A stretch of DNA of 53,270 bases from Candidatus Levyibacteriota bacterium (GTDB lineage Bacteria > Patescibacteriota > Microgenomatia > Levybacterales > UBA12049): assembly GCA_027459745.1 (NCBI GenBank), contig DAIDHL010000008.1, forward strand, positions 1-53,270, given 5' to 3'. A program made the translations under genes and the position numbers. Shown in pieces: positions 1,122-41,436 of this stretch. Every line of letters starts with the position of its first letter. Positions within the stretch are counted from its first letter, which is position 1. The notes under the pieces are model-generated. The model saw only the letters and a program-made list of their open reading frames with translations. It was not told the DNA's origin and did not search any database.

Positions 1122-1192
1122 TGTCGAGTCGTCTAATGGTAGGACAACAGACTTTGGATCTGTTTATTCTGGTTCGAATCCAGGCTCGACAG
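1122..1192 (+). tRNA. tRNA-Gln(TTG), CCA not encoded
   Basis: Acceptor stem TGTCGAG/CTCGACA, D arm GTCTAATGGTAGGAC, anticodon arm ACAGA-CTTTGGA-TCTGT, T arm CTGG-TTCGAAT-CCAG, discriminator G. Confidence 0.95.
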
Positions 1193-2861
1193 CTAACATA
1201 CCTTGACCAGACATAAAATCATCGTTTAGCTTGATACACTGGGCTAATTTAGGTGTTCCAGAAAGTATTTCCGCATAGGTTGGGGCTTCATCGAATAAAA
1301 CCCCAAAATAGGCTGCTTTTTGTACAGAATCCGTGCCTAAAATGAGTAATTCTTCTAAGTGTTCCAGAAAATATTTGATGTAGACCATAACTACCTTCAT
1401 ATCTATTGGCTGTGCGTCAACTGCTTTCTGTTTCTCACCTAAAAGATCAGTGAGCTGCTGTTCTGTTGTTATCAATTCCTGCTCCATATACTTAATCGCA
1501 ACTTCAGAGGTTAAAAACTTTATCTTATCAATTGTCTGCTTTGTCTGTGTTTTTAATTGCGTAATCCTGTCATCAATAGTAACTTCATCTTTTACGACTT
1601 CTATATTTCGCTTTTCCCACTCAGTATTTACATTATTAACCAGTGCGTCAATATATCCATCTGCAAGTCGAATGTTCTTCACAAACTTAAATATTGCATC
1701 TTCAAAATCTTTCTTCGGTACACGTAAATAATGCCCCCGCTTATTACAGTGATAGGCTGGATAGTATTTGCCCAGACGTCCTTTTGAGGCACTGCCAAAA
1801 AACGGTTTTTCACAGTGCGGGCACAATACATATTTTCTATATGGAAAATCAGGATTTCTTACGCCTTTCTTTAGTAGCCATTCGGGAGTTGGCTTTTTGT
1901 GTATTGTTACCTCACCGTTTTCTTCAGAAATAATAATTTTGCCATTATTTGCCTTGTTGAACATATCTATTGAGACTAATCCGTCATATTTAGCTTTTAC
2001 ACGCTGATTTGCCGTCCATTTTTCCATGCTTACTCCGGCGTAGATTGGATTTTGGATGAAGCGCCAAAACCCCTTGATATTTAGAGGATTTCCACCGTGT
2101 TCTTTTTTGATTTTGGTTCTATCGTGTGCATCTCTGATGTATTTCACTCTGGTAATAAAACCTAATTTGTTAATCTCCTCAACAATTTGGTGATCGTTGA
2201 GGGTTCCATGACACCGGAGCTCAAACATCTTAATAATAAATTGGGCTTCAGTCGGATGAGGTTTTAAGATGCAACGTTTTCCATTTGGTGTTTCTATTTT
2301 CTCAATGACATAACCGTAAGGAGCTTCCCTGACCCAATAACCCATCCGAGCATAACGAATTTCAGCTCCGATCATTCTTGACATAATATCCCGCATCTCG
2401 TCTTTTGCCCGTTCTGCTTCTAATATTTCGGCTTTTTTCGTAGGAGAATAGACACTCCAGTCAAAGGAGACACCTAAATGCTCTAATGTATTTACTTTTT
2501 GTGAGCTAATGATGCCGTAGATGTCGATAAGTTTAATATTGCAGTGATCAAGCTGCATTTTTAAATAATCGTAAGAGTATGAACCACCTCTAGTAAATCG
2601 GTCAATGGATTTAATAATAAAGAGCTGGATATTATTAGCGGGATGTTTACAGTAATTAACCGCTTCCTGCATAGGCTGCTGCTCTTTGGACGCAGATTCC
2701 ATAAAAACAAAGAACTTTTTAATTGTAATATTGTGAGTTTGAGCAAATCTTTCTAATTGTTCTTTTTGTGCCTCAGGAGAATCACCATCCGTTCCTTGTT
2801 TGGTTGATGATACACGGATAGCTGCGACTGCATTTTCAGGATTTGATAGGATTGTATTCAT
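1164..2861 (-). CDS. Large serine recombinase (integrase)
   Basis: N-terminal IRVSSTKQ catalytic Ser motif, SIDRFTR, APYGY recombinase domain, CPHC...YHC zinc ribbon, coiled coil; the last codons overlap the tRNA. Confidence 0.93.
   Translation of the reverse strand: MNTILSNPENAVAAIRVSSTKQGTDGDSPEAQKEQLERFAQTHNITIKKFFVFMESASKEQQPMQEAVNYCKHPANNIQLFIIKSIDRFTRGGSYSYDYLKMQLDHCNIKLIDIYGIISSQKVNTLEHLGVSFDWSVYSPTKKAEILEAERAKDEMRDIMSRMIGAEIRYARMGYWVREAPYGYVIEKIETPNGKRCILKPHPTEAQFIIKMFELRCHGTLNDHQIVEEINKLGFITRVKYIRDAHDRTKIKKEHGGNPLNIKGFWRFIQNPIYAGVSMEKWTANQRVKAKYDGLVSIDMFNKANNGKIIISEENGEVTIHKKPTPEWLLKKGVRNPDFPYRKYVLCPHCEKPFFGSASKGRLGKYYPAYHCNKRGHYLRVPKKDFEDAIFKFVKNIRLADGYIDALVNNVNTEWEKRNIEVVKDEVTIDDRITQLKTQTKQTIDKIKFLTSEVAIKYMEQELITTEQQLTDLLGEKQKAVDAQPIDMKVVMVYIKYFLEHLEELLILGTDSVQKAAYFGVLFDEAPTYAEILSGTPKLAQCIKLNDDFMSGQGMLAVEPGFEPE
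1181..1193 (+). repeat. attL (CAGGCTCGACAGC)
   Basis: tRNA 3' end; 11/13 identical to 41424-41436. Confidence 0.75.
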
Positions 2862-2862
2862 A

Positions 2863-3033
2863 TTATTTCATCTGAATTTTGGTTTTTAATATTACACTAC
2901 CGTTTCTCTGATCTTCCAGCATTTTATCGATGATAAGGTTGGCCAAAAAACAAATTCTTTCTTCTATTGAGAGAGTTGAAGTAATGGGGCGAGTATATGA
3001 TTTTTTGTTCAAAATACCTTTAATTCTACCCAT
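2863..3033 (-). CDS. 56-aa protein directly upstream of the integrase (candidate directionality factor/DNA-binding protein)
   Basis: Own translation: MGRIKGILNKKSYTRPITSTLSIEERICFLANLIIDKMLEDQRNGSVILKTKIQMK; stop is 1 nt before the integrase ATG; lies just after a promoter. Confidence 0.7.
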   Translation of the reverse strand: MGRIKGILNKKSYTRPITSTLSIEERICFLANLIIDKMLEDQRNGSVILKTKIQMK

Positions 3034-3038
3034 AATTG

Positions 3039-3087
3039 AATTATCCTTACAAGGATAATTGTACTATCCCTACAGGCATAATGTCAA
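3039..3087 (-). promoter_or_regulatory. Integrase-operon promoter with a palindromic operator pair
   Basis: Minus strand TTGACA(3087-3082)-N18-TACAAT(3063-3058); perfect IR AATTATCCTT-AC-AAGGATAATT at 3039-3060; degenerate copy TATCCCTACAGGCATA at 3065-3080. Confidence 0.7.
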
Positions 3088-3188
3088 GTAAGAAAACAGT
3101 TATAATTAACCACTGTTAATTCAATTTAATAGGTCTATATTAAATTAATAATCACATTTAGATCATAATGATATAATTATATATATCT

Positions 3189-5333
3189 ATGGCATTCGCA
3201 AGTGACGCAGCAATCGAATCTAGAAAAGAAGATCGACTTAATCGATATCCTTTTTCAGAGCATTTAGGTAATGCAATTCTTAATTGGACTAATATTGAAA
3301 CTATGGTTCTGGGATTGTATGGTGAATGGGGAGCTGGTAAAAGTTCTATAATAAATTTATCTCTAGAGTATATTATAAAAACAACAGGAAAAGATAATAA
3401 AACATCACCTATAATATTTCGTTTTAATCCTTGGAACTTTACCGAGCAAAATCAATTAGTTACTATTTTCTTTTCTGAGTTATCAAAAGTTATTGGATTT
3501 CAGGGAAATTCAGAACAAGCAACTGAGATAGGAAAAAAACTATTATCTTACAGTAAATTCTTTACACCCCTAACTATCTTAGCACCATTTTTTCCTCAAT
3601 TCGCTGAATTAATGAAATTGCCAGAAAGTACTTTAAAGGAAATGGGTAATGCCACAAAAGAATGGTCTGAACTTAATGATAAAGATTTATCCGCAATTAA
3701 AGCTGAACTCTACAAGCAAATTATAAAACTTCATCGCAAGATAATAATAGTCATAGATGATATTGATAGATTAAATAATCAAGAGATGCGGCAGATCTTT
3801 CAACTAGTTAAAATGAATGCTAATTTCCCAAACACAATATATATTCTTTCTTTGGACGATCAAAAGGTTGCTGCCATGTTAACAGAGGATAAATTCCCAG
3901 GAAAAGATTATTTAGAAAAGATTATACAGGTACCGTTCCATGTACCAACAATTGAGAAAGCTCGACTAGAGAAAATTCTATTTAAAGAATTAGATTCCAT
4001 TATAAAACCACTCTTATCAAAATCCACCCCTTTTGAGAAAAAAAGGTGGCAAGATATATACTTTGAAGGGTTAAGTGGTGTCTTCCCTTCGTTGCGTAGT
4101 GTGAAACGGTATATCAATAGTTTACGTTTTACTATTATGCTTGTCCCAAACGAAATTAATATTGTTGATTTTATGGGTATTGAATCTCTTCGTGTATTTT
4201 TTCCCGAAGTTTACACGCATATTGCAAAAAATAAAACATTATTTGTTGGTGATGTGTACTCTATTGATCGGGATGATAGGAAAGCTAAAGTGGAGAAAAT
4301 TAATAAAATGGTAGAAAGTGTACCTGAATCTGATAGAAAATACGTTTTACACATAATATATAAACTATTCCCACAAATTGCTAATAATTATGGATCTGAG
4401 TGGCAGGATATTTGGGAAGGTCAAAAATTTATCTGTTCTAGATATAGATATGATAGGTACTTTTTCCTTTCAGTTCCAGAAGGACAATTACCACAACAAG
4501 AAATTAATAAACTGATTGTAAAATCTGATAATATAAATGATTTAGAAAACTCATTAATAAAATTAATTAGATTGAAAAGAGTAAGAAAGTTTTTAAGTCG
4601 GTTACCTGATTTTAAAGAATTAATACCACAAAAAAATATAGCAAATTTCATTATTGCTATGTTTAATATTAGCGATAAACTTCCACAAGGCAGAGAACAT
4701 GATTTTGACTTCGGAGCAACAATGGAGGCTACTCGAATTGCGTACCACCTACTAAACAATATCGAAGATCAAAAAACAAGACAAAAGATTGCATTTAAAG
4801 TTATACAAGGTACTTCTGGAATAATCGCACCATTGGAGTTCGTATTTTATGAGGTAGAAAGAATGGAAAAAAATGAACATACCAGACTATTTAAAGATAA
4901 TAAGACTGTCGAAAAGCTTAAAGAAATAATGTGCAAGAAATTAGAAGAACGAGTAAAAGTTGATAATTTAAAATCTGTCCCTAATTTACAAAATATTCTA
5001 TTAATTTGGAAGAATTGGAAGGGTGATGAAAAGGCTAAAATATTAGTAGCATCCCTTCAAACAAGTACTGACGGAATCGGGAGCATTTTAGAAGGATTTA
5101 GCTATCAACGACATTTTGGGAATCCAAAGAATATTAATTTTTGGGATATATCATTTAAAAGTATTGAAATGTTTACGGATATAGAAGAATTTAAAAAGAA
5201 AGTGAAATCCTTATCAAAGGAAGATATAAAGTTATTTTCGCCACAACAAAAAATGGCACTTAAACTTTTTAATAAATTGATTAAATTTCCTAAAGGAAAT
5301 ATAAATGATTCTATAGAAGATAATCATGAATAA
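3189..5333 (+). CDS. KAP family P-loop NTPase
   Basis: D..DRLNR start, Walker A GEWGAGKSS, FNPWNF, Walker B IVIDDIDRL, YLEKIIQVPF, KRYIN. Confidence 0.9.
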   Translation: MAFASDAAIESRKEDRLNRYPFSEHLGNAILNWTNIETMVLGLYGEWGAGKSSIINLSLEYIIKTTGKDNKTSPIIFRFNPWNFTEQNQLVTIFFSELSKVIGFQGNSEQATEIGKKLLSYSKFFTPLTILAPFFPQFAELMKLPESTLKEMGNATKEWSELNDKDLSAIKAELYKQIIKLHRKIIIVIDDIDRLNNQEMRQIFQLVKMNANFPNTIYILSLDDQKVAAMLTEDKFPGKDYLEKIIQVPFHVPTIEKARLEKILFKELDSIIKPLLSKSTPFEKKRWQDIYFEGLSGVFPSLRSVKRYINSLRFTIMLVPNEINIVDFMGIESLRVFFPEVYTHIAKNKTLFVGDVYSIDRDDRKAKVEKINKMVESVPESDRKYVLHIIYKLFPQIANNYGSEWQDIWEGQKFICSRYRYDRYFFLSVPEGQLPQQEINKLIVKSDNINDLENSLIKLIRLKRVRKFLSRLPDFKELIPQKNIANFIIAMFNISDKLPQGREHDFDFGATMEATRIAYHLLNNIEDQKTRQKIAFKVIQGTSGIIAPLEFVFYEVERMEKNEHTRLFKDNKTVEKLKEIMCKKLEERVKVDNLKSVPNLQNILLIWKNWKGDEKAKILVASLQTSTDGIGSILEGFSYQRHFGNPKNINFWDISFKSIEMFTDIEEFKKKVKSLSKEDIKLFSPQQKMALKLFNKLIKFPKGNINDSIEDNHE

Positions 5334-5410
5334 TAGTTAGTGCTAAATTCTCACTTTTTACTTTTCCTTGGATCTGTGCTATAACTCAAGCTAATTCCTG
5401 CCTATGAAAC

Positions 5411-8149
5411 ATGAAAGTGCAGGAAATCATTACTAATCTACAATTCGGCCATATTATTCGTGTGCCATTATTGTATATAGAGCATGAGATACAAGTAATG
5501 ACTACATCACAGCAACAAACGTATATTTTCATCCCTACAATTTATGTTTTTGTTGTAATCGCTCTAATAATTTATTTAGTTCGTAAAATCCTTATACTTC
5601 GAAGAAATTTTTTACAGGAATCTGTATTACTGGAAATAACTCCCCCTGCTTTTACAGAAAAATCCGCTTATACCACTGAACAATTATTCTCTGTTATTCA
5701 TAATGCAAAAAATGGGAACAAATTCATTAATTTGTTACTTGATAAAAAAACAGTATTTTCATTTGAAATTGTTTCAACACGAGAAAAAGGGATTCGGTAT
5801 GTTATACGAACGGATCTAAAACAAAAAGAAAATTTGAAACGGAAAATAACTTCTTATCTTCCAGGAGTTTTAGTTCATGAAGTAAAGGACTATTTGAAAA
5901 ATCCAATAGAGACATATAATTCATCTCGACAAATTATTGAATTAAAACTTAGTAGTCATTTTGCATATCCACTCGAGAAACAGAATATGCTTGATCAGCA
6001 TGATCCTGTGGCATATATAACAGGTATGATGACTCAGTTAAAGAAGGATGAGTTAATTGCCATACAAATTGTTCTTGCACCAATAAAAACAATTGAGGCA
6101 AAGAAGATATCTAATATGATTTTGAGACAGGAAGATGTGCTCTCGTATCTTGATTCAATTCGACCATCTGGTTTTGTAAAGGTATTGCTTGATGCTATAA
6201 AACTAATTGGACTGATTATCAACAAAGTAGGTCAAGAGTTACAATGGGCACTCACTGAAATGATGCATGGCAGTAGCAGTATGAGTTCTGTAAATATGTA
6301 CAGTACAACTGCTTATCAACAGCAATTGAAAGTAACCAAAATTAAACCAATGCGCCAACTCTCTTCTTTTGAAACAGAAATTGTGACTTCAATACAGGCA
6401 AAGATTACACAACCATTATTTGCAACTAGCATTAGAGTACTTGTTTCTGTAAGCTCTCAAGATGAATTACAAGAACGTGTGAATGGATTAATTTCATCAT
6501 TTGAGCCATTTAGTGTTCCACAATATCAGTCGCTTAAAACAAAGTGGAATTTCCCACCAGTTCTTATAAAACAGATTCGTGATCTTGTTTTTCAAAAACG
6601 ATTATTATCTCTTATCAATAACAAAAGCTCTTCTCTTCTCTCAGTTTCAGAAGTGGCAGATTTATATCATTTCCCTTTTTCTAACGTTACCCAAACAGAA
6701 AATATCGCAAAAAGCTATAGCTATGAGTTGCCAGCTCCTGTGTCTCTAAAACAAGGAACAAAATTTGATGTAATTTTTGGAAGAAATATGTATGCGGGCG
6801 TCGAAACACTTATTGGATTAACACCTGATCAACGAGCAAGACATATGGTCATTTTTGGAGGAACTGGAAATGGAAAAACAACGTTGATATCAGAAATGAT
6901 GCAGCAAGATATGCAAAATGGGAAAGGCCTATGTTTTATTGATCCGCATGGAGACGCAGCAGAACGTGCATTACAAATGATTCCCACGGATCGCGAAAAA
7001 GATGTCGTTTGGGTCGATCCGTATGACATAGATCGTCCTCTGGCAATTAATTTAATGGAGTTGACACCCAACTTAAAACAAAATGATGCACTACGCGAGA
7101 AAGAACGTGTTGCTGAAGGTATTGTATCCCTCTTCCGAAGAGTTTGTGCGAGTGATTTTTCTAAAGCTGGGAGTAATGCATTCCGTATTGAGAACACACT
7201 CCTCAACGCAATCTATACAGCATTTTACGTTCCCGATTGCACGCTCTTTACTATTTATGATTTGTTAAATGATCCGGTATTCCTCAGAAAAACAGTTGGA
7301 AGCATAGAGGATAAACGATTAAAAGATTTCTGGAAAAATGAATTTGGCAGGGCAGGAGATTATCAAATAGTAAAAATGGTTGGTGGTGTAACTGCAAGAA
7401 TTGGTAAGTTTCTGCATAGTGAATCAGCGCGAAGAATATTTGAGCAACCAAAATCAACGCTTCTATTTGATCATTTGATGGATAGTAAAAAGATAATCTT
7501 GTGTAATCTTTCAAAAGGAAAATTGAGTGAAGACATATCACAGGTTATCGGCACAGCTATCTTAACAAAAATGCAACTCTCTATTATGGCAAGAGCAACA
7601 ATACATGAATCAGAGCGAATACCTTTTTATCTATATATTGACGAATTCCAAAACTTTGCGAGCGATTATTTTGTCGGGATGTTAGCTGAAGCAAGAAAAT
7701 ATAAGTTACATATTGTTATAGTTGAACAGTCAACGAGTCAGCAACAAGATCAGAGCCTTATCAATATTATTCTTGCCAATGTGGCAATTATCATTTGTTT
7801 TAGAACAGCAAACCCAGCTGATGAGGATTTAATACTGCCACAATTTGCACCTATGGTGAAAAAGGGAGATATCATGAATCTTCCCTGGTTTCATTTTTTT
7901 ATTAAAATATATGCCGCTGTTGCACAAGAACCTTTCACCGGTGAAACAGTACCCCTTAGAGCTGGAGATGACAAAGAGAAAGGTAAAAGAATTATACAGC
8001 TATCTAGTCAAAAATATGGGAATATATATAAGCGTCTACATCCAAAAAGTGATGCACAACAGACACCCAACATTATCGATACAAAGGATAAAAATAATAA
8101 AACTATTACAGATACTACTATAATAAAGGGTTCACCTGATGAAAATTAA
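5411..8149 (+). CDS. Type IV coupling protein-like ATPase (VirD4/TrwB/TraD family) with long N-terminal domain
   Basis: N-terminal TM, RHMVIFGGTGNGKT Walker A, IDPHGD, LYIDEFQNF Walker B, EARKYKL; start uncertain. Confidence 0.85.
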   Translation: MKVQEIITNLQFGHIIRVPLLYIEHEIQVMTTSQQQTYIFIPTIYVFVVIALIIYLVRKILILRRNFLQESVLLEITPPAFTEKSAYTTEQLFSVIHNAKNGNKFINLLLDKKTVFSFEIVSTREKGIRYVIRTDLKQKENLKRKITSYLPGVLVHEVKDYLKNPIETYNSSRQIIELKLSSHFAYPLEKQNMLDQHDPVAYITGMMTQLKKDELIAIQIVLAPIKTIEAKKISNMILRQEDVLSYLDSIRPSGFVKVLLDAIKLIGLIINKVGQELQWALTEMMHGSSSMSSVNMYSTTAYQQQLKVTKIKPMRQLSSFETEIVTSIQAKITQPLFATSIRVLVSVSSQDELQERVNGLISSFEPFSVPQYQSLKTKWNFPPVLIKQIRDLVFQKRLLSLINNKSSSLLSVSEVADLYHFPFSNVTQTENIAKSYSYELPAPVSLKQGTKFDVIFGRNMYAGVETLIGLTPDQRARHMVIFGGTGNGKTTLISEMMQQDMQNGKGLCFIDPHGDAAERALQMIPTDREKDVVWVDPYDIDRPLAINLMELTPNLKQNDALREKERVAEGIVSLFRRVCASDFSKAGSNAFRIENTLLNAIYTAFYVPDCTLFTIYDLLNDPVFLRKTVGSIEDKRLKDFWKNEFGRAGDYQIVKMVGGVTARIGKFLHSESARRIFEQPKSTLLFDHLMDSKKIILCNLSKGKLSEDISQVIGTAILTKMQLSIMARATIHESERIPFYLYIDEFQNFASDYFVGMLAEARKYKLHIVIVEQSTSQQQDQSLINIILANVAIIICFRTANPADEDLILPQFAPMVKKGDIMNLPWFHFFIKIYAAVAQEPFTGETVPLRAGDDKEKGKRIIQLSSQKYGNIYKRLHPKSDAQQTPNIIDTKDKNNKTITDTTIIKGSPDEN

Positions 8150-8318
8150 AGTCAATTTTGTGGGTACGCGTGTCCATAAAATTTCATCTATAGTGAACCT
8201 AAATAAAACAAAACTACATCCTATTCTTTCTTATATATAAGAAGATGTGTTATACTTCACATCTAGTTTACAATACTAACTTACTCCTTGCCCCTGCTCT
8301 CTATTCTCAACTTACACT

Positions 8319-9092
8319 ATGCTCTTACAATCTATCACTCCAAAACAATTACAAATCTTACGCCTTCTTTATACCTTCCGCTTTCTTACTACTACTCATT
8401 TTCAACTACTTATGCATCATAAAAGCCCTAGTCTTATTCAAGAATGGTTGAAAGATTTGGTAGAGAAAGGTTATATAGTCAGTTCATATTCTAGACAAAA
8501 GCGAAATGAAAATACCAAGCCGGCAATCTTTCATCTTGTTTCGCCTGCCAGACATATATTAAAAAAAGAAAAGGATATTGAGATTGAGGCATTACGATTA
8601 ATTTATAAAGAGAAACGAAAAGGGAAAAAGTTTATTGATCATTGTCTTACACTTGCTGATATCTATTTATTCTTTGAGAAAAAATTAAATAAAGATGAGA
8701 CACTTAAATTTTTTACACGAACGATGTTGACAGGATATGACTATTTTATCAAACCAATACCTGACGCATTTATTGCAATAAAAAATACAACTGGAACAAA
8801 GCGTTATTTTTTGGATTTGTTTGATGAATATACACCTCCATTTGTGTACAGAAAAAGAATTAGACAATACCTTGAATATTCCAGACAGGGTGACTGGGGC
8901 TTAAATACAAATCAAAACAAATTACCTGTTGTATATTTTGTCTGTCCTAATGAAACAGCGAAAAAGCATGTGTACTGGTATGGAAAAAGTATTATTGAAA
9001 AATCATTTGAAGAAGTGACTTTATTTGTCACGACCAAGGACACAATAAAATTTGCTAAAGAAACTCTTGATCCTTGGCAAAAAGTAGCATAA
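8319..9092 (+). CDS. Replication-relaxation (Replic_Relax) family protein, putative relaxase
   Basis: N-terminal wHTH (QILRLLYTFRFLTTTHF), HCL, PD...YFLD PD-(D/E)xK-like core; follows the coupling protein. Confidence 0.75.
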   Translation: MLLQSITPKQLQILRLLYTFRFLTTTHFQLLMHHKSPSLIQEWLKDLVEKGYIVSSYSRQKRNENTKPAIFHLVSPARHILKKEKDIEIEALRLIYKEKRKGKKFIDHCLTLADIYLFFEKKLNKDETLKFFTRTMLTGYDYFIKPIPDAFIAIKNTTGTKRYFLDLFDEYTPPFVYRKRIRQYLEYSRQGDWGLNTNQNKLPVVYFVCPNETAKKHVYWYGKSIIEKSFEEVTLFVTTKDTIKFAKETLDPWQKVA

Positions 9093-9117: not shown

Positions 9118-9450
9118 CTATATATTCTTATCTAGGCATTCAACCGAACAATACCCGTTAAACGTACTAAAATCCTTTTCCTCACTGAGCGCGTTATGCT
9201 GTGTACCTTCATAGCCACATTGTGGACATGTATAGAATTGGACAATATATTGTTCTGACTGATCAAGAACTCCGACGTTATAGTCTTCATCAGATAAGAA
9301 AACATACCCACTACTTGTATTGAAGTTAAGCGTTAAACCACAATTTAAGAATTCTGCACCATGCTCTGCATAAGCTTTCAATAGCAATTGTGCAAATATG
9401 AGTTCTCTAATTCCAAATTGTGAGAAATCAGCTGTTATTACTGTGCTCAT
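9118..9450 (-). CDS. Hypothetical protein with C-terminal CxxC...CxxxC (leading-region/phage-like)
   Basis: ORF with RBS GAAAGGGGTGA; FNTSSGYVFLSDEDYN motif; CPQC and CSVEC. Confidence 0.65.
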   Translation of the reverse strand: MSTVITADFSQFGIRELIFAQLLLKAYAEHGAEFLNCGLTLNFNTSSGYVFLSDEDYNVGVLDQSEQYIVQFYTCPQCGYEGTQHNALSEEKDFSTFNGYCSVECLDKNI

Positions 9451-9495
9451 TAATTTCACCCCTTTCTGGCTGCGTAATTTTTGAAAATATTTTTA

Positions 9496-15526: not shown

Positions 15527-15550
15527 ATCTCCTACATAGTGTAGGAGATA
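15526..15550. promoter_or_regulatory. BlaI-type operator over the dsbA RBS
   Basis: TATCTCCTACA-TAG-TGTAGGAGATA, 11-bp perfect IR. Confidence 0.75.
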
Positions 15551-15563
15551 ATTATTCTCTCTG

Positions 15564-16565: not shown

Positions 16566-16929
16566 GTTTTTCAAGTATGTGCAACAATTCCTGTTTTTCA
16601 AGCTGGGGTAAGTTTTCTATACTTTCTGCAAACGATGCCATACCAGATGTTCCAAAAGATTCAAGATATTTTTTTAAAAATCCATCAACGACATTTCTCC
16701 CATAGGAGGCTTTCGTTATCTTTGCAGTAAACGTATGAGGAAATTTTATTATTTTTTTCTTTACAAATCCTTTTTGTTCGAGTCTTTGTAGAATTGTCCC
16801 AATCGTATTATATGCTAGTAACTTTTTTGAAGATTGTTTTTCCAACACATCACGAATTGAGACTTCGCCCTCCTCCCAGACGATATCCATGATTTCTAGT
16901 TCTAAATTACTAATTTCTTTATATGCCAT
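16549..16929 (-). CDS. BlaI/MecI/CopY family transcriptional repressor
   Basis: ISNLELEIMDIVW, LAYNTIGTILQRL..KG. Confidence 0.92.
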   Translation of the reverse strand: MAYKEISNLELEIMDIVWEEGEVSIRDVLEKQSSKKLLAYNTIGTILQRLEQKGFVKKKIIKFPHTFTAKITKASYGRNVVDGFLKKYLESFGTSGMASFAESIENLPQLEKQELLHILEKHEKHQ

Positions 16930-16947
16930 TCCTACATAGTGTAGGAA
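16929..16947. promoter_or_regulatory. BlaI-type operator (autoregulatory)
   Basis: TTCCTACA-TAG-TGTAGGAA abutting the blaI start codon. Confidence 0.78.
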
Positions 16948-16982
16948 AATACAATCAAAAGTGCAATAATGAATATACAGTT

Positions 16983-30535: not shown

Positions 30536-30542
30536 AGTGTCT

Positions 30543-30556
30543 CCTACATAGTGTAG
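30543..30556. promoter_or_regulatory. BlaI-type operator over the RBS
   Basis: CCTACA-TAG-TGTAG just upstream of the start at 30535. Confidence 0.7.
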
Positions 30557-30590
30557 TATTTAAAATTAGATTTTACAATATCGTAAATAA

Positions 30591-34426: not shown

Positions 34427-34431
34427 AAAGA

Positions 34432-35161: not shown

Positions 35162-35503
35162 ATGAAAAAACTTATTTATCTCTCATCACTGTTATTAACA
35201 ATGCTTATTGCAGTCACACCAGTCTATGCGGCTTCAGCAGATGTTACAAAAATCCAAACCTTTATCGAAAGTATTACAGGTATTCTTACAACGTTAGCTA
35301 GTGCTGTTGCAATAGGATTTTTTGTCTGGGGTGGATTTGGATATATCACAAGTTCAGGTAACCCAGAACATTTAGATCGGTCTAAAAAAACACTGCTTTA
35401 TTCAGCCATTGGTCTAGCAATCGTTCTTGGTGCCTTTATGTTATCGAACATTGTGACACAAGTAGCAACTAGTGCTTTTGGAGCAGCTCCTACAGGGCAA
35501 TAA
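35162..35503 (+). CDS. TrbC/VirB2-like pilin
   Basis: Signal peptide, two hydrophobic helices around GGFGYITSSGNPE; strong RBS. Confidence 0.8.
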   Translation: MKKLIYLSSLLLTMLIAVTPVYAASADVTKIQTFIESITGILTTLASAVAIGFFVWGGFGYITSSGNPEHLDRSKKTLLYSAIGLAIVLGAFMLSNIVTQVATSAFGAAPTGQ

Positions 35504-35518
35504 GTTGATACTCACATT

Positions 35519-36820
35519 ATGAAAAAGATATTTAACAGTCTAGCCATACTGATTGGTTTTTTTATGTATGCTCCACCTGTTTTTGCAGTTGGTTCGGATA
35601 TACAAAATTACACATCCGATACATTACAAAGTATCATCCTCATCGCGTCCGCTTTAGCGGGCTTTTTTTTAGTTAAGGGAGGGTATTTCTATATTACCTC
35701 CTCTGGTAATCCTGAGAATTTAGAGAGCGCAAAACGAACGATTCGGAATGCGGTCATAGGTCTTCTATTGGTGTTAAGCGCAGGATTTATCGTGACACTC
35801 CTTCAAAATACATTTACTGGTCAAATAACGCTGAACAGTCCATCTTCCGTCTCACTTACTCCTATTGCCCCACAACTACCAACGGATGGCGTCGGTACAG
35901 TAATGATCAATGGCATTAATGCAATCATGCAAAATATTATTCAGAGTGCAACCAAACCACTCCTTGATGCGATCATTGGGTACTTAACAACTACTCCCAG
36001 TTTATTAAGTAATGCTGTTGTGTTTAACTTTTGGCTAGTCACCCTAGGCATTGCTGACGCGTTATTTGTTCTAGTCGTTGCAGTCTTGGGACTTCAAGTC
36101 ATGTCTGCGAGTAGCTTTGGATTTGAAGAGATAGAATTAAAACATTTACTCCCACGAATTAGCTTAGCATTCTTAGGAGCCAATGTTTCATTATTTTTAT
36201 GTGACTATGTGATTACTACCTGTAACGCACTTGTGTCAGAAGTACTTCATACGACCGGAGGATTAGATCACGCGTGGGTAGTCAATGCGGCAACGTACCA
36301 AGCAATTGGGAGTAACCAAGCTCCTATGATTACGCTTATTTTTTTACTCCTCTTTATTATTATCGCAATTATTCTTCTGTTTATGTATGTAGTACGCCTT
36401 ATTGTGATTGCATTATCTGGAGTACTTGCACCATTTATCTTCTTACTTTGGGCAATACCAAAATTCTCTGATTTTGCAGAAGCTGGCGTTCGAGGATATT
36501 TAGCCACTGTCTTTATAATATTTGTGCATGTCATAGTTATTCAACTTGCTGCTTCATTTCTTTCCCTTCCAGATCATGCAAATAACTCCATTTTAGCTGT
36601 CGTTATTGCCATAGGGTTATTTTTAACACTTTTAAAGATCCCAACCTGGTTATTCCAAATGATGTTTTATACAAGCCGAGTTGGCTCACTCAAACGCATG
36701 GGTGCACAGATGCTTAACGCCATGACAACACATAAAACAGAAGATAATACTATTGGTTCTCAACCCTCATATGGAGTAGATGCTGAGATACAAAAAAGAA
36801 GGAGATATATAAACGCATGA
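35519..36820 (+). CDS. Pilin domain fused to a VirB6/TrbL-like polytopic protein
   Basis: N-terminal pilin repeat, then about 6 TMs with R...L...AP...W..P. Confidence 0.72.
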   Translation: MKKIFNSLAILIGFFMYAPPVFAVGSDIQNYTSDTLQSIILIASALAGFFLVKGGYFYITSSGNPENLESAKRTIRNAVIGLLLVLSAGFIVTLLQNTFTGQITLNSPSSVSLTPIAPQLPTDGVGTVMINGINAIMQNIIQSATKPLLDAIIGYLTTTPSLLSNAVVFNFWLVTLGIADALFVLVVAVLGLQVMSASSFGFEEIELKHLLPRISLAFLGANVSLFLCDYVITTCNALVSEVLHTTGGLDHAWVVNAATYQAIGSNQAPMITLIFLLLFIIIAIILLFMYVVRLIVIALSGVLAPFIFLLWAIPKFSDFAEAGVRGYLATVFIIFVHVIVIQLAASFLSLPDHANNSILAVVIAIGLFLTLLKIPTWLFQMMFYTSRVGSLKRMGAQMLNAMTTHKTEDNTIGSQPSYGVDAEIQKRRRYINA

Positions 36821-37329
36821 GAACAAGAATAATTCCAGCACAAATTACAACCGTTGAAGATAAAATTGCTGGCAATATAAGTGTGACACAATTACTTATC
36901 CTGATGATCCCAGTTATATTTACGACCAGTGTATTTATTTTGTTGCCACCGCACATGCAGATTAATGCATATAAGCTGGTATTTTCGTCTATAGTTCTGA
37001 TTGTCAATCTTATACTCGCATTTAGATTTAAAGGGAAGGTTATCGCCCACTGGCTCATTATCCTTCTTCGTTACAATATGCGTCCACGATGGTATGTTTT
37101 AGATAAGAATGAATCATACCTTCGAACAATGCATGTACCAACACTAAAGAAATTACATAAACATGCGGCACAATCATCAAAGATTCAAGATGCCAAACCA
37201 GTTGTAAAAGATATTTCTTTTCCAGGACTTGTGCAACTTGAGCAATTAATCAAAGACCCAGCATATACCTTTTCATTAAAACTTAAGAAGAGAGGAGGAC
37301 TGCAAGTTGCTCTTAAACAAATCTCATAA
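36817..37329 (+). CDS. PrgI/VirB3-like protein
   Basis: IPAQITTVEDKIAG.IS..QL, 2 TMs; ATGA coupling. Confidence 0.78.
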   Translation: MRTRIIPAQITTVEDKIAGNISVTQLLILMIPVIFTTSVFILLPPHMQINAYKLVFSSIVLIVNLILAFRFKGKVIAHWLIILLRYNMRPRWYVLDKNESYLRTMHVPTLKKLHKHAAQSSKIQDAKPVVKDISFPGLVQLEQLIKDPAYTFSLKLKKRGGLQVALKQIS

Positions 37330-37921
37330 AGCGTCAAGTAGACGACAAATTCAAATCAAAGAAGTAAAAGATAACATATTGGTACTACCTGATAACCAAT
37401 ATCGGTTAATACTGGAAACAAGTAGTATTAATTTTGAATTAAAAAGTGAGGAAGAACAAGATGTCTTGATTGATAGTTTCCAAAGCTTTTTGAATGCCCT
37501 TCCCTGTCCTCTCCAAATGCTTATTCGTGTTCGAGAAATAGATATAGAAGCATATATCGAACAAATAACACATAACAAAAATACAGAGAAAGAAGAAGTG
37601 TATAGAGAACAAATTGACAGCTACGCTGCTTTTATTAGAAAAGTTGTTTCTGGAAATAAAATTCTATCCCGTCGTTTCTATGTGGTGATTCCATATCACT
37701 CAATTGATCGAAAACACGACTTTTCAATCATTAGCGAGCATCTTAATTTGTCACGAGATATTGTTATGCGAGGTATTGAAAAATTAGGAATGAAAGCACG
37801 TCAGCTTAACAGTATCGAACTTCTCGATTTATTTTATTCGTTCTATAACCAAACAGCGAGCAAGACTCAGGAACTAAAAGGACAAACAATCGAAACAATT
37901 CTACAAAATACCTATGCTTAA
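37307..37921 (+). CDS. TraC/VirB4 N-terminal-like protein
   Basis: SSINFELKSEEEQ...FLNAL..P.Q, RRFYVVIP. Confidence 0.72.
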   Translation: MLLNKSHKASSRRQIQIKEVKDNILVLPDNQYRLILETSSINFELKSEEEQDVLIDSFQSFLNALPCPLQMLIRVREIDIEAYIEQITHNKNTEKEEVYREQIDSYAAFIRKVVSGNKILSRRFYVVIPYHSIDRKHDFSIISEHLNLSRDIVMRGIEKLGMKARQLNSIELLDLFYSFYNQTASKTQELKGQTIETILQNTYA

Positions 37922-39749
37922 CTTACCACAATTACCAATTGCACAGTTACAAAGAATTGATTTGCAAAAGATGCAAAAGCAATTAAGAAGGAAAATAAAA
38001 AAGTATTTGAGCAAAAAAGAGAAACTCAAACAATCATTCCAGTTTAACTTTGGAGAGCAAGATCAGATTGATCTACTTTCGTACTCAGGGCTTGAGGAGA
38101 ACTCGTCATATCTGCAAATGGATGATAAATTTGTTCGAACACTTTTTATCTCAGGCTATCCATACGTCGCAACAACGGGCTGGCTCAATATGCTGATTAA
38201 CTTTAATTACAATAGTGATATCTCTTATCACATAGAGCAAATTGATCCGCTCCTCGCACTTCCAAAACTAACAAGAAAAATAACAGAGCTTGAAGCAACA
38301 AAACGAGCAATGATCAAAAGTGGAAAAATAATAGGATCAGAAATTACAGATCCTTTAGATTCAGCTATTACACTAAAAGATAAGATTCTGAGAGGACAGG
38401 AAAAACTGTTTCAAATTTCAATATATATAACTCTCACGTCAGATAGCTTGAATGAACTCAATAAAGTATCGACAATTCTGCAAACCGTGATGTCCAGTCG
38501 TTTGTTCTACATTAAGTCTGCAACATTTCAGCAGCTCGAAGGATTACAATCAACACTTCCTCGTGGAGAAAATATATTATTACAGAGACGGAATTTAGAT
38601 AGTTCAAGTGCAGCCTTAACATTTCCATTTATCTCAAGTGAGTTAGTCCAGGAATCAGGGATTTTATATGGGATTAATCGATCAAATAACTCTTTAGTTA
38701 TTATTGATAGGTATTCACTCAATAATGCTAATGCAATTGTCTTTGCACAGTCAGGTAGTGGAAAAAGTTACACAGCTAAAGTGGAAATTCTTCGTCATTT
38801 AATGCAAGGAACCAAAGTGATTGTCATTGATCCTGAGCGGGAATATAAACAGTTGGCTCAGTCAGTCAACGGTACATATATTAAATTATCGAGTACCTCA
38901 AAAGAAAAAATAAACCCATTTGACTTTTCTCTCCACTCTCATGCCAATGAAGCAACGCTTGCTGAACATGTCCAGGATCTAACAGAGATCATTGCGCTTA
39001 TGGTCGGTAGTTTATCGCCAGAAGAGAGAGCAATTGTTGATAAGGCAATACTTCAGACATATAAAAATTTTGGCTTCACACTTACTGGGAAGCGAAAACT
39101 AAAAAGTAAAAAAGAAGAATTCCCATTACTTATCGATCTATATACAGTTCTTAAGCATATGAAGCAAAAAGATTTATGTGCACGTCTTGAGCGGTTCGTC
39201 AAAGGATCTTTGGCAAGTGTGTTTAATGAGCAAACGAATATAGAGCTAGATAATCGATTGGTTATTTTTGATATCAAAGATCTTCATGAATCGTTACGCC
39301 AAATTATGATGATAGCAATTGCTAATTTTGTGAATACACAAGTGAAATCTTTTCCACAAAAGAGAATGTTGGTGATTGATGAAGGTTGGATGCTATTAGA
39401 ACACGTTGAATCAGCAAGATTTATCGCAGGACTTGTCAGAAGAGCAAGAAAATATTATTTGGGAGTGACTATTATTTCCCAACAAGCCAATGATTTCTTA
39501 AGCCAAGATTATGGTCGAGCAATTGCCAGTCAATCCAGTCTTCGAGTTCTGATGCGACAAGACACAACAACTATTAAAAAAGTTGCTCAAGAATTTCATC
39601 TTAGTGAATATGAACAACAGTTCCTTCTTACCTGTGATCGCGGAGAAGCATTAATTATTGCAGATCAGAATCATGTCGCCGTCAAAGTCGTCGCTAGTGA
39701 GAAAGAACATCCATTGCTGACAACTGATCCTAAGGAGATTTATCTTTAG
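37914..39749 (+). CDS. virB4: VirB4-like conjugative ATPase
   Basis: AQSGSGKS, IDPEREY, INPF, IDEGW, RRARKY, ISQ. Confidence 0.88.
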   Translation: MLNLPQLPIAQLQRIDLQKMQKQLRRKIKKYLSKKEKLKQSFQFNFGEQDQIDLLSYSGLEENSSYLQMDDKFVRTLFISGYPYVATTGWLNMLINFNYNSDISYHIEQIDPLLALPKLTRKITELEATKRAMIKSGKIIGSEITDPLDSAITLKDKILRGQEKLFQISIYITLTSDSLNELNKVSTILQTVMSSRLFYIKSATFQQLEGLQSTLPRGENILLQRRNLDSSSAALTFPFISSELVQESGILYGINRSNNSLVIIDRYSLNNANAIVFAQSGSGKSYTAKVEILRHLMQGTKVIVIDPEREYKQLAQSVNGTYIKLSSTSKEKINPFDFSLHSHANEATLAEHVQDLTEIIALMVGSLSPEERAIVDKAILQTYKNFGFTLTGKRKLKSKKEEFPLLIDLYTVLKHMKQKDLCARLERFVKGSLASVFNEQTNIELDNRLVIFDIKDLHESLRQIMMIAIANFVNTQVKSFPQKRMLVIDEGWMLLEHVESARFIAGLVRRARKYYLGVTIISQQANDFLSQDYGRAIASQSSLRVLMRQDTTTIKKVAQEFHLSEYEQQFLLTCDRGEALIIADQNHVAVKVVASEKEHPLLTTDPKEIYL

Positions 39750-39752
39750 ACC

Positions 39753-40352
39753 ATGTCCACTGTCTTATCATTTTGGCTTGAACTTCGATTATTACTCATA
39801 ACATTCTTTATCGTTCTTATCGTACTTCCGATACTCGCGATGCTGACGCTCACTAACTTTGGTTTCCAGGATGTGTCCGATAAATTAGTTACTGTTAACG
39901 CTAAAAATCATACGGTTGAAATTCATGATTTAGATGGAACAACTACAACAATTACTGAAACAATGATTTGGCCAGTAAATGGTGTCGTCACACTTGAATT
40001 TGGTCAACCTGATCCTCCATATCAACCACTACATACTGGGATTGATATAGCCAATCCTGAGGGCAAACAAGGTGATTCTATTCACCCTTTCATGAAAGGT
40101 ACCGTGATCTATGCAGGTGAGGACTTATCTGGTTATGGCAAGCATGTGATTATTAATAATGGTAATAACATAACGAGTCTTTATGGACATATGAGCGCAA
40201 TCAATTCAAAAGTAGGTGCAACAGTGAATACGAGTGAAGTTATCGGCTATGAAGGTCAAACCGGCTGGGCAACCGGTCCCCACGTGCATTTTCAAATCAA
40301 TGTATACGGTATTCCTGTTAACCCGAGAACGTTTTTAATGGGAAATCCATAA
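39753..40352 (+). CDS. M23 family peptidase
   Basis: HTGID, YGH, TGPHVHF. Confidence 0.9.
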   Translation: MSTVLSFWLELRLLLITFFIVLIVLPILAMLTLTNFGFQDVSDKLVTVNAKNHTVEIHDLDGTTTTITETMIWPVNGVVTLEFGQPDPPYQPLHTGIDIANPEGKQGDSIHPFMKGTVIYAGEDLSGYGKHVIINNGNNITSLYGHMSAINSKVGATVNTSEVIGYEGQTGWATGPHVHFQINVYGIPVNPRTFLMGNP

Positions 40353-40407
40353 TATTGTTCAGAAATACAAAAAACAATTCAAAGTTGTATAATTATGAGA
40401 CTCATCT

Positions 40408-40620
40408 ATGAATAATAACTATGCAATTAAACTTGGTCAGAAACTGAAGGATTTCCGACTTAAAAAGAATTTGACTCAAATTGAGATTGCTGAAAAAGCT
40501 GAAATAAACAGTAATTACTATGCTAAAGTTGAGCGTGGTGAAGTTAAGGTAAGTATGGAGTTAGCATCTAAAATTGCAAAAGTATTAGGCGTGAAACTTG
40601 AAGATATAAAACCCTCCTGA
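40408..40620 (+). CDS. XRE family HTH regulator
   Basis: LTQ.EIAEKA.I..NYYAKVERG. Confidence 0.9.
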   Translation: MNNNYAIKLGQKLKDFRLKKNLTQIEIAEKAEINSNYYAKVERGEVKVSMELASKIAKVLGVKLEDIKPS

Positions 40621-40627
40621 AGCTGTT

Positions 40628-40837
40628 TTAATTTATACTTTTCTTTTCATTCTGTAATTTTTTATACATATCTACCAATTTTTCAAAGTCAGTATGTGCA
40701 AGTAGATGAATATTCGCTTGAAGATACTCCAAAATTTGTATTGCCATTTCCGGTGTAGCATGTTCGGGGTCTGTACGTTTTAAAATTCCAAGTACAATAT
40801 CAATATCCTTTTCATTTATCTCGTATTTTTCAGCCAT
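40628..40837 (-). CDS. Hypothetical 69-aa protein
   Basis: ORF track; DPEHATPEMA; co-oriented with the PLD gene. Confidence 0.65.
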   Translation of the reverse strand: MAEKYEINEKDIDIVLGILKRTDPEHATPEMAIQILEYLQANIHLLAHTDFEKLVDMYKKLQNEKKSIN

Positions 40838-40859
40838 ATTGCCTGTAGTATATCAGTAA

Positions 40860-41300
40860 TTATAGAAATTTTTCAAATTTTAAGAAATCAAACATTTCTT
40901 GAGCTGATTGTTTCCCTTCAGTTCTTCTCATAATTTCCCTGCTATATGTTTGAGAAAGGATATTTAAGCTTCCTTCCCAAAGAATAGTTCTATCAATGAT
41001 TGCAAGTTTTCGATGATGATTGCCTAAACAGAGAAACGTTTGTACTCCCATTACTTCAAATTTTCGAATTATCGTTTCTGATTGTATCTCCATTCCCTCA
41101 AAATGTTCTTTTGGGTCTCTGGTAAAGATGTAAATTTCAACTCCTTTATTCAACAACTCTTGAAAAATTGGGAGAAATATATGTGCTCTTTCATACGTTA
41201 CAAACGGACTTTCGATAATTATCTCTTTTTTGCAATTTCTCACATCTTTTAGAAATGCATCGTAGAAGGTTTTCTCATCAAAAAGAGCGGAGTTAAACAT
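40860..41300 (-). CDS. Single-domain phospholipase D family (Nuc-like) protein
   Basis: IESPFV, HRKLAIID...GSLN (HxKxxxxD); RBS AAGGAGG. Confidence 0.87.
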   Translation of the reverse strand: MFNSALFDEKTFYDAFLKDVRNCKKEIIIESPFVTYERAHIFLPIFQELLNKGVEIYIFTRDPKEHFEGMEIQSETIIRKFEVMGVQTFLCLGNHHRKLAIIDRTILWEGSLNILSQTYSREIMRRTEGKQSAQEMFDFLKFEKFL

Positions 41301-41436
41301 GACCGTCCTCCTTTTCTAATAAAGAAATAATAGATACCTTTCCGTTATAATATGTAAACCCTAATTTCCTCAGTTTTTCAAAGGTATTGAGTAAGCTAGG
41401 CACGATTTGGTTCCACCTACGGGCAAGCTCGCCAGC
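41293..41436 (-). other. Orphan 3' segment of the integrase gene (46 codons), joined on excision
   Basis: Frame A-GELARRWNQIVPSLL...EDGHV* is in register with integrase Ala557 across the att repeat; its stop overlaps the PLD start. Confidence 0.7.
41424..41436 (+). repeat. attR (CAAGCTCGCCAGC)
   Basis: 11/13 match to attL, at the end of the element backbone. Confidence 0.72.

Follow-up and report, generated by a model that had tools for sequence, protein, structure and literature searches.

A probable tRNA-integrated conjugative element with its own mating-pair operon and a MOBC-type protein in a Microgenomates-group Patescibacterium

The type IV secretion systems (T4SSs) of Patescibacteria have been surveyed in 3,035 genomes, with 58 MOBC relaxases identified by MOBscan, 39 relaxase genes found near coupling-protein genes, and virB4 neighbourhoods examined over 20 genes on either side (PMC12102498, Quinonero-Coronel et al. 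2025). In that study, these systems form a monoderm clade, related to the class FATA of mating-pair formation systems (MPF-FATA), that comprises a VirB2-like pilin, a VirB6-like protein, a PrgI/VirB3 protein, TrsD, VirB4, and an M23-type hydrolase. TrsD is their commonest component and its pairing with VirB4 is typical of them. They are treated there as chromosomal, and are argued to be mostly relaxase-free, co-opted for other functions, and probably not conjugative. Whether the ultra-small, host-dependent bacteria of the Candidate Phyla Radiation (CPR) exchange genes by conjugation is an open question. Here we analyze a stretch of DNA of 53,270 bp, hereafter the window, which is the whole of contig C21 of a Candidatus Levyibacteriota genome. 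We find it likely that positions 1194-41436 of the window are an integrative conjugative element (ICE), that it belongs to a family widespread in Patescibacteria, and that it works by the mechanism proposed below.

The mating-pair genes of this element have the composition just described. However, they represent a second, sporadic lineage that lies inside a tRNA-integrated element, where it accompanies a recombinase, a coupling protein, and a MOBC-type protein, and their VirB4 is 41% identical to that of the core T4SS of the same genome. The left module of the element resembles the streptococcal integrative mobilizable elements (IMEs) of class 8, which are compact and associate a VirD4 coupling protein, a PF13814/MobC relaxase, and a serine integrase (PMC5357655, Coluzzi et al. 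2017). These IMEs lack mating-pair genes and must borrow a T4SS, whereas the window element has its own six-gene operon, around 25 kb of cargo, and a host of another phylum. A further likeness is to the MPF-FATA systems of Mycoplasma ICEs and of the CTn2 type, which are wall-less or monoderm machineries: the pilin and VirB4 of the window score above or near the cut-offs of the NCBIfam families concerned (Mbov_0395, Mbov_0397, CD1110). Mycoplasma ICEs rely on a DDE transposase and show no preference for an integration site; the window element differs from them by its tRNA-specific serine recombinase and its MOBC relaxase. Overall, the element combines known kinds, namely an ICE, an MPF-FATA-like T4SS, a MOBC relaxase, and a large serine recombinase, and both MOBC relaxases and relaxases beside coupling-protein genes are already known in Patescibacteria (PMC12102498). 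Two of its features seem undescribed: the splitting of the recombinase gene at the attachment site of the element (attP), and a covarying hairpin as candidate origin of transfer (oriT). The limited collection of literature that we searched contains no description of a delimited ICE family in Patescibacteria, nor of a tRNA end at which the gene of a serine recombinase is split.

The host assembly (G000) has 22 contigs and 1.37 Mb and is 97% complete; the 31 genomes sampled from its order all have between 0.6 and 1.8 Mb. The 16S rRNA gene is absent from the assembly. We compared it with the genomes of relatives, of which G001 belongs to the same genus, while G003 and G007 are further relatives. 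The left flank of the element and its tRNA gene are 89-91% identical in DNA to contig C19 of G001, and a glycosyltransferase is 97% identical in protein. The contig therefore belongs to the host lineage and did not arrive there by faulty binning. We assign the host, which is uncultured, to the Microgenomates group of Patescibacteria, given this match and the place of Candidatus Levyibacteriota within the Patescibacteria group, and the guess of a CPR host made in a preliminary description of the window was correct. The products of 58 open reading frames (ORFs) of the window were searched with Pfam profiles (E ≤ 0.01) and further with the NCBIfam and PADLOC profile sets, and tRNA genes were identified with ARAGORN. 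Every gene listed in the preliminary description is found by the ORF calls and Pfam at the place where it had been put. Related loci were collected by a profile-guided scan of one genome per species, which gave 36 loci; among their record titles, 13 read 'uncultured Gammaproteobacteria bacterium', one 'Woesearchaeota', and one 'Clostridia', labels that are unconfirmed. A search for the relaxase in GTDB genomes was restricted by design to the host phylum, and used 401 genomes drawn evenly (E ≤ 1e-10).

The element spans 40,243 bp, with an ambiguity of 4 nt, and lies at the 3' end of a tRNA-Gln(UUG) gene. The features that define its two ends are the following.

1122-1193, plus strand: tRNA-Gln(UUG), the integration target (ARAGORN), 72/72 identical in G001; the crossover core of the left attachment site (attL) is 1190-1193 (CAGC)
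1164-2861, minus strand: large serine recombinase in its integrated form, 565 aa (Pfam Resolvase, 32.2 bits, cut-off 23.3)
2863-3033, minus strand: 56-aa ORF directly upstream of the recombinase gene and co-directional with it, a candidate directionality factor
40860-41300, minus strand: small nuclease-like protein of the phospholipase D (PLD) family, at the right end of the element (Pfam PLDc_2; PLD domains of MkoC/DrmC in PADLOC)
41293-41436, minus strand: detached 3' end of the recombinase gene, 47 codons and a stop, part of a small ORF at 41293-41541; the crossover core of the right attachment site (attR) is 41433-41436

On the left, the identity with G001 spans the entire tRNA-Gln gene and ends exactly after base 1193. 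A recombinase 95.6% identical to that of the window is found in G003, where it abuts a tRNA-Gln(CUG) gene in the same arrangement as the window's at tRNA-Gln(UUG). In each of the two tRNAs the acceptor 3' strand pairs with its own 5' strand, and the sequence common to the two elements starts directly after CAGC, which places the crossover at the very end of the tRNA. On the right, four copies of the end (in the window and in contigs C16, C4, and C19 of G001) are 77-81% identical and lose their similarity after 41436, again at CAGC. The break of homology with G001, the break at the right end, and the in-frame junction of the recombinase gene presented below all support a left end at 1190-1193 and a right end at 41433-41436. 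The element thus has a site-specific recombinase and definable attL and attR at a chromosomal target, as is the case for ICEs. The ends drawn in the preliminary description agree with these breaks and with the recombinase junction; the right one is exact, and the left one is off by no more than about 10 nt. The attachment repeat given there (GCTCGaCAGC at 1184-1193 and GCTCGcCAGC at 41427-41436) is by itself at chance level, and the ends are supported by independent evidence. Direct repeats were indeed considered as attachment sites and rejected: none was longer than expected by chance in the window, nor at the tRNA ends of three compact relatives. The lack of such a repeat is expected, since the integrase is a serine recombinase.

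The last 30 nt of the recombinase gene overlap the tRNA gene, and its last 10 codons, stop included, are the antisense strand of the tRNA. On the minus strand, a codon boundary of the recombinase frame falls between 1194 and 1193, and one of the ORF at 41293-41541 falls between 41437 and 41436. When the element is excised in silico, the joint 41436|1194 yields a single open frame of 603 codons. In contigs C16 and C4 of G001 and in the homologue P0121, the protein sequence of the detached tail is conserved. Among the best 120 of 1,712 recombinase homologues, 89 end with the peptide G[FLIV][ED][PL], which is the T-arm of a tRNA read backwards, and these 89 were therefore sequenced in the integrated state. 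The homologue P0006 (77% identical) continues instead with LAGEL...WNQI, as the simulated attP junction does, and P0052 and P0043 have W-N at the same offset as the tail of the simulated junction. These comparisons indicate that the recombinase ORF spans attP, and that integration would exchange a tail of about 47 residues for a peptide that the antisense strand of the tRNA gene encodes.

A similar arrangement is found in a second recombinase subfamily, only about 21% identical to the first, to which the enzyme of a second ICE of the host genome (contig C11) is related. There, the tail of the homologue P0196 matches the frame just beyond the PLD gene of the second ICE with a score of 57, where the next best match scores 29 and the median over 119 tails is 18. 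Nearly all other tails start with W-C or W-Y, the antisense reading of the CCA end of a tRNA. A scan of junction positions in the second ICE gave no clear result alone, and the tail of P0196 settled it. Judging from these alignments, an attP-spanning recombinase gene is present in both subfamilies.

The preliminary description had named an integrase at this place. A site-specific recombinase is present, but its Resolvase match makes it a large serine recombinase and not a tyrosine recombinase. Its translation has an N-terminal RVSS..Q motif, which we take to be the catalytic-serine motif of serine recombinases. The Zn_ribbon_recom profile scores 19 in the window enzyme, below its cut-off of 25.3; PF07508 is found in 11 of the same 120 homologues, and the enzyme of the second ICE has all three domains. 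The Resolvase, recombinase, and zinc-ribbon domains typical of large serine recombinases are thus found across the window enzyme and its homologues. An attP inside a gene is known from SSV1-type integrases, from intP/intX of Mx8, and from mycobacteriophages with integration-dependent immunity. In these cases, as in the window element, integration alters the C-terminus of the attP-spanning protein and couples its form to the integration state. However, they concern tyrosine integrases or a repressor, whereas the window element has a large serine recombinase whose tail would come from an antisense tRNA. Those who use large serine integrases as tools may take an interest in a recombinase gene that is interrupted when the element integrates at the end of a tRNA.

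The alternative that survives best, though we consider it improbable, is that the window holds a fossil island, once conjugative and now fixed in the chromosome, that is kept for its metal-resistance cargo and no longer excises or transfers. It would account for the fact that only the integrated state is seen, for an integrated recombinase devoid of its native 47-residue tail, for the gene fragments resembling decayed cargo to the right of the element (41.5-52.6 kb), and for the orphan right-end remnants in contigs C4 and C19 of G001. However, all backbone ORFs are full length when compared with the sister copies, and this single genome has two copies of differing sequence. Furthermore, the VirB4 operon is 83% identical in DNA, and VirB4 95% identical in protein, to a copy in another species of the genus, which suggests recent spread.

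The relatives of the element are in line with its being an ICE. A complete sister lies at tRNA-Leu(GAG) in contig C8 of G001, with a recombinase, a coupling protein, a relaxase, shuffled metal cargo, the six-gene operon, a helix-turn-helix (HTH) regulator, and the PLD gene, and partial sisters are found in the same genome at tRNA-Phe and on further contigs. The second ICE of the host genome (contig C11, around 208.3-235.9 kb) is at tRNA-Glu(UUC), has the same order of modules, and encodes a VirB4 83% identical to the window's. The related loci use 11 different tRNA genes as targets. Of the 19 loci in which a recombinase was detected, 15 have the 3' end of its gene overlapping a tRNA, and three of the remaining four lie at contig edges. 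In the host phylum, the Replic_Relax profile matches 38 of the 401 genomes, scattered over many families. A backbone of conserved genes at a fixed chromosomal locus, which the preliminary description gave as evidence that would refute it, is not what we see: the backbone is sporadic, multi-copy, and located at many tRNA sites. Relaxase, coupling protein, VirB4, and further mating-pair genes are thus present in one element, and this element is variably present among relatives. On contig C11 (around 202985-235941; loci L075 and L076), the second ICE abuts a remnant with a second serine recombinase, a second Replic_Relax protein, and an 811-aa protein of GmrSD/HEPN type. At its 3' end, the ORF of this second recombinase extends into the right arm of the first ICE there.

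The genes that would process and deliver the DNA are at the left of the element, together with the intergenic region that separates them.

5411-8149, plus strand: VirD4-type coupling protein, 912 aa (Pfam TrwB_AAD_bind, T4SS-DNA_transf, and TraG-D_C, all above cut-offs)
8159-8178, plus strand: conserved inverted repeat (8 bp + 4 nt + 8 bp), a candidate oriT hairpin, just after the stop codon of the coupling-protein gene
8228-8243: perfect 8+8 palindrome (TTCTTATA/TATAAGAA), just upstream of the ribosome-binding site of the relaxase gene
8319-9092, plus strand: Replic_Relax (MOBC-type) putative relaxase (Pfam PF13814, 37.6 bits, cut-off 25.3, profile positions 1-181 of 191)
9118-9459, minus strand: 113-aa backbone protein with a CxxC motif, adjoining the relaxase gene and conserved in sister elements

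The coupling protein has a predicted N-terminal membrane segment (residues 39-57). Of the 28 related loci with at least 3 kb of upstream DNA, 26 have one of its homologues directly before the relaxase. The preliminary description recognized no MOB relaxase here and suggested that a PD-(D/E)xK-like nickase does its work. However, PF13814 (Replic_Relax) is listed as the MobC superfamily of CONJscan (Table 1 of PMC5357655) and is placed in the PD-(D/E)XK superfamily (PMC3424549), while MOBC relaxases (TraX, MobC) are an established class, restriction-endonuclease-like with an N-terminal winged helix (PMC12857230). Hence, a relaxase family is recognizable, and the nickase idea is right but not new, since MOBC is already an established PD-(D/E)XK class. 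Structure prediction for 8319-9092, which had been proposed as a check, agrees with this view. The AlphaFold model has a mean predicted local distance difference test (pLDDT) score of 90.5, from an alignment of 34 sequences, and a Foldseek search with it returned FokI as top match (E 9.4e-5), followed by XisH, PaqCI, and BstEII, with MarR/MecI winged helices matching the N-terminus. On this model, the protein is predicted to have an N-terminal winged helix and a PD-(D/E)XK restriction-endonuclease-like domain, i.e. the fold of MOBC relaxases. The acidic residues E98, D149, D/E166, and D/E169 are kept in 28-32 of the 34 sequences.

In 23 elements, the 170-bp spacer that separates the coupling-protein gene from the relaxase gene shares one layout: the inverted repeat comes first, a GAAGCTAAA-like box follows, and the palindrome before the ribosome-binding site comes last. 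Across 22 elements, 90.9% of the cells of the hairpin at 8159-8178 are paired, against 63.4% in shuffles, and none of 500 shuffles reaches the observed value. All eight pairs have changes on both sides, the covariation score is 0.763 against 0.229, and controls slid along the region give at most 58.9%. No T-run follows the repeat, which makes an ordinary terminator the less likely reading. We regard the hairpin as the best candidate for oriT. The core of the palindrome, CTTATATA..TATAAG, is conserved over the 23 aligned intergenic regions, with TTATATA in 20 of the 23, and the palindrome is a possible operator or relaxase binding site. Compared by description only, TraX (pAD1) and MobC (CloDF13) resemble the Replic_Relax protein in having a winged helix and a PD-(D/E)XK domain, and their binding site is expected to be distant from nic (PMC12857230). 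The oriT of TraX has five direct repeats in that description, whereas none was seen in the window spacer, which instead has the covarying hairpin and the palindrome. Next to the relaxase gene, the 113-aa protein is 72-85% identical in sister elements (blastp/tblastn), whose relaxases are 37-53% and recombinases around 22% identical, a conservation that is unusually strong for a backbone gene of a mobile element; it has no family match in Pfam, NCBIfam, or PADLOC.

It is very unlikely, in our view, that the T4SS moves something other than the element, such as effectors or host DNA taken up, and that the Replic_Relax protein is a regulator or a replication protein. The family is annotated as 'predicted transcriptional regulator' (PMC3424549), PMC12857230 states that no covalent relaxase-DNA intermediate has been observed for MOBC, and no catalytic lysine was found in the window protein, all of which would suit this alternative. 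Yet a regulator would leave unexplained the near-constant pair that the relaxase forms with the coupling protein, the covarying hairpin between their genes, and the nuclease fold with its conserved acidic residues, and VirB4 and the pilin match families named for conjugal transfer. The mating-pair genes of the element are six co-directional genes at 35162-40352, which are followed by a regulator; virB4 is around 29 kb from the relaxase gene.

35162-35503, plus strand: VirB2-like pilin (Pfam T4SS_pilin and TrbC; NCBIfam Mbov_0395, 41.7 bits, cut-off 40)
35519-36820, plus strand: 433-aa polytopic membrane protein with a pilin-like N-terminus, candidate VirB6 equivalent (Pfam T4SS_pilin at residues 29-95)
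36817-37329, plus strand: PrgI/VirB3-like membrane protein with an N-terminal hydrophobic hairpin (Pfam PrgI, 27.2 bits, cut-off 27)
37307-37921, plus strand: TrsD homologue, 204 aa, resembling the N-terminal part of VirB4/TraC (NCBIfam TrsD, with N-terminal VirB4_plasma and CD1110 matches)
37914-39749, plus strand: VirB4 ATPase (NCBIfam conju_CD1110, 354.5 bits, cut-off 325; Pfam P-loop_TraG and AAA_10)
39753-40352, plus strand: membrane-anchored M23 peptidoglycan peptidase (Pfam Peptidase_M23, E 8e-26; anchor at residues 13-31)
40408-40620, plus strand: XRE-type HTH regulator (NCBIfam RstR-type and PADLOC control-protein matches), at the same place in contig C8 of G001

The hydropathy profile of the pilin shows a signal peptide and two hydrophobic helices. 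The 433-aa protein has around nine hydrophobic segments and is 54-85% identical in six sister operons; its position and hydropathy make it a candidate VirB6-like protein, and its structural model (mean pLDDT 45.1, seven sequences) is too poor for the fold to be read. What had been described as a split VirB4 is a TrsD gene followed by a VirB4 gene, as indicated by the NCBIfam TrsD match and by the same two-gene layout in all sister operons. The M23 peptidase is a cell-wall hydrolase located where a VirB1 homologue would sit, and is a candidate for a VirB1-like role. The preliminary description recognized no VirB7-11, lytic transglycosylase, or HUH relaxase, and no such family was found among the 58 ORFs scanned. 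A VirB4 of the CD1110 family, PrgI, and M23, together with the lack of matches to VirB7, VirB9, and VirB10, are as in MPF-FATA systems. However, two proteins with VirB2/T4SS_pilin domains start the operon, whereas the absence of a VirB2-type pilin is stated for Gram-positive classes in PMC12102498 and PMC12857230. Such a pilin characterizes the Patescibacteria clade and not the classical FATA systems. Downstream of the operon, a 69-aa ORF separates the XRE regulator from the PLD-family gene. The PLD-family protein is 62% identical in contig C8 of G001 and 56% in contig C11 of the host genome, and has no significant relative among solved structures (best E 0.088).

The identities of VirB4 proteins in the host family are bimodal, with a core class (39-44%) in 37 of 41 genomes and an ICE class (66-100%) in 7 of 41; three of the seven carriers of the ICE class have two separate full-length copies. 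The host genome also has a T4SS on contig C15 (53116-72160; L074), which is the 'core' system of the literature, nearly universal in the family. Its VirB4 has 709 aa and is the one 41% identical to the ICE type, and the locus encodes four pilin-domain genes (one of 824 aa with a C-terminal domain), a 513-aa PrgI fusion, a TrsD-like gene, and a 1,039-aa protein of no known family. No relaxase, coupling protein, or recombinase is found among the 14 ORFs scanned at this locus. Least probable of all is that a small integrative mobilizable element, made of the recombinase, the coupling protein, and the MOBC protein, merely lies side by side with a host T4SS operon that serves the epibiotic lifestyle and not DNA export: the published case for mostly relaxase-free, co-opted T4SSs in Patescibacteria (PMC12102498), the 29 kb between relaxase and virB4, the scarcity of VirB4 within 10 kb of the relaxase in related loci (4 of 24), and the streptococcal IMEs with the same three-gene module and no T4SS (PMC5357655) would fit, but the genome already has its separate core T4SS with pilin arrays and, among the ORFs scanned there, none of the three genes, the core type is in nearly all genomes of the family and the window type in few, and in three complete elements the operon is internal, with the cargo on one side of it and the conserved PLD gene and right end on the other, and in four compact relatives it comes within 3.4-5.7 kb after the relaxase.

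The ICE reading is therefore the one we retain. The 'apparently complete ICE' of the preliminary description is structurally complete, with the recombinase, the coupling protein, the MOBC protein, and the mating-pair operon between defined ends. We propose that the excised circle would encode a recombinase of 603 residues, which would recombine attP with the 3' end of the tRNA at the CAGC core. Integration would sever the last 47 codons, which would be left at attR, and replace them by nine residues from the antisense tRNA. By this exchange of tails, the reaction may be biased towards stable integration for as long as the full gene has not been rebuilt by excision. Once the element is excised, the MOBC protein would nick oriT in the 170-bp spacer that holds the covarying hairpin, and the coupling protein would pass the DNA to a channel powered by VirB4 and TrsD, while the M23 peptidase would open the wall and the pilin would make contact. 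The cargo may give tolerance to copper, zinc, and redox stress, and the PifA-like gene phage exclusion.

Several observations weigh against this reading. No excision, circular form, or transfer was observed. The sole public run with the sequence, which belongs to a study labelled as a mine drainage metagenome that contains 29% of the sampled words, gave short contigs of low depth (around 3-6) without junction information; no joint or loose end at 41436 was among those listed (147 more existed), and the run is uninformative on excision. P0006 ends with its contig 13 residues past the junction and could derive from a tandem array and not from a circle. No directionality factor was recognized in the element; the 56-aa ORF at 2863-3033 has no family match in NCBIfam or PADLOC, and falls in a block of 1,903 bp that is 89% identical in contig C51 of G003. 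No VirB8-like protein was recognized in the element either. The match of the attachment repeat at 41421 (11 of 16) is equalled by four other matches within the window. The relatives offered no clean empty site: in G001, the DNA after the tRNA-Gln gene is unrelated over 1.86 kb, and the similarity returns only at window position 52636 (by blastn; 52649 by a short-word search), which means that the 11 kb to the right of 41436 are also variable between the two genomes. The other comparisons made in search of such a site were no better, as the DUF1800 gene of the flank is elsewhere in G001 without synteny, and the region of contig C16 of the host genome between tRNA-Leu(gag) and tRNA-Val(tac) has only tRNA-Val in common with the flanks of the element in contig C8 of G001. 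The Replic_Relax protein has no clearly conserved catalytic lysine in the expected strand (34 sequences), and a tblastn search of 72,556 plasmid records gave no match at E ≤ 0.01, which makes it a distant branch. Its membership in MOBC thus relies on one Pfam profile and the predicted fold. Finally, only 4 of the 24 loci with enough flank have VirB4 in the 10 kb that follow the relaxase, and many of the relatives may be mobilizable elements and not full ICEs, or may have long cargo like that of the window.

A broader reading, which we put forward tentatively, joins these results. It holds that Patescibacteria have a phylum-wide family of tRNA-targeting ICEs with serine recombinases, whose pilus-bearing monoderm machine is paralogous to an essential core T4SS, whose divergent MOBC relaxase is largely missed by standard typing, and whose split recombinase gene is a switch between the integrating and the resident state. 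The Replic_Relax profile matches 38 of 401 genomes here, against 58 MOBC relaxases in 3,035 genomes in print (PMC12102498), a comparison that is only suggestive because data sets and methods differ. If this reading is true, the printed view that T4SSs of Patescibacteria are not conjugative holds for the core system only. The window and its relatives separate two T4SS lineages in one genome, one of which is tied to a recombinase, a coupling protein, a MOBC-type protein, a candidate oriT, and defined ends, and the question of conjugation in Patescibacteria thereby becomes directly testable. The family suggests that CPR bacteria may conjugate after all.

The remaining genes of the element are accessory, and the main ones are the following.

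3189-5333, plus strand: PifA-like KAP-family NTPase of the phage abortive-infection type (Pfam KAP_NTPase, E 3.8e-48; PADLOC PifA, E 1.1e-82)
9735-34716: cargo, around 25 kb (Pfam)

The PifA-like protein aligns over its full length, with residues 3-682 on positions 5-704 of the 720 of the PADLOC profile, and its function is a prediction from this match; PifA itself is the phage-exclusion protein of the F plasmid. The cargo encodes YibE/F, a polysaccharide deacetylase, a multicopper oxidase, two DsbA-like proteins, an M56 peptidase with a BlaI/CopY-type repressor, Crp, two heavy-metal P-type ATPases, ArsR with an exporter of the cation diffusion facilitator (CDF) family, a DsbD-cupredoxin protein, a cupredoxin, a CsoR-type repressor, and others. 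Many of these genes recur in shuffled order in the sister elements of G001 and of contig C11 of the host genome. The element would be a route by which metal-resistance and phage-exclusion genes move among CPR bacteria. A palindromic motif of 24 nt is present in three copies that are 79-88% alike (15528-15551, 16928-16951, and 30540-30563; core CTACATAGTGTAG), located upstream of the pair formed by the M56 peptidase and the BlaI/CopY-type repressor, and upstream of the DsbD-cupredoxin gene. These motifs are probably operators of the BlaI/CopY-type repressor that define a small regulon of the cargo.

To the right of the element, window positions 41437-52649 are missing from the tRNA-Gln locus of G001 and hold gene fragments that resemble decayed cargo. 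They include a 154-aa C-terminal fragment of a P-type ATPase (46401-46865), an EamA transporter of half length (46927-47349), and a CDF exporter (45383-46249), and the region may be what is left of an earlier island at this tRNA hotspot. In the public run (X1), one contig connects 49515 back to 41670 with 15 extra letters, which is unexplained. A locus from another genus of the family (L029, contig C33 of G007) has copper P-type ATPases 54-73% identical to those of the window cargo, around 2-10 kb downstream of a tRNA-Gln(UUG) gene (at 10027-10105 of the locus). No recombinase was found there by blastp, and the locus may be a block of cargo stranded at the same tRNA-Gln hotspot. At the end of the window (52650-53270, minus strand) and at positions 56-560 of contig C19 of G001, both contigs break in, or at the edge of, a homologous gene with 77% protein identity. 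The C-terminus of its product weakly matches K1-lyase_C, and its relatives are multi-copy and include a protein of 1,564 aa in G001. The gene probably belongs to a repeated family of large surface proteins that breaks assemblies.

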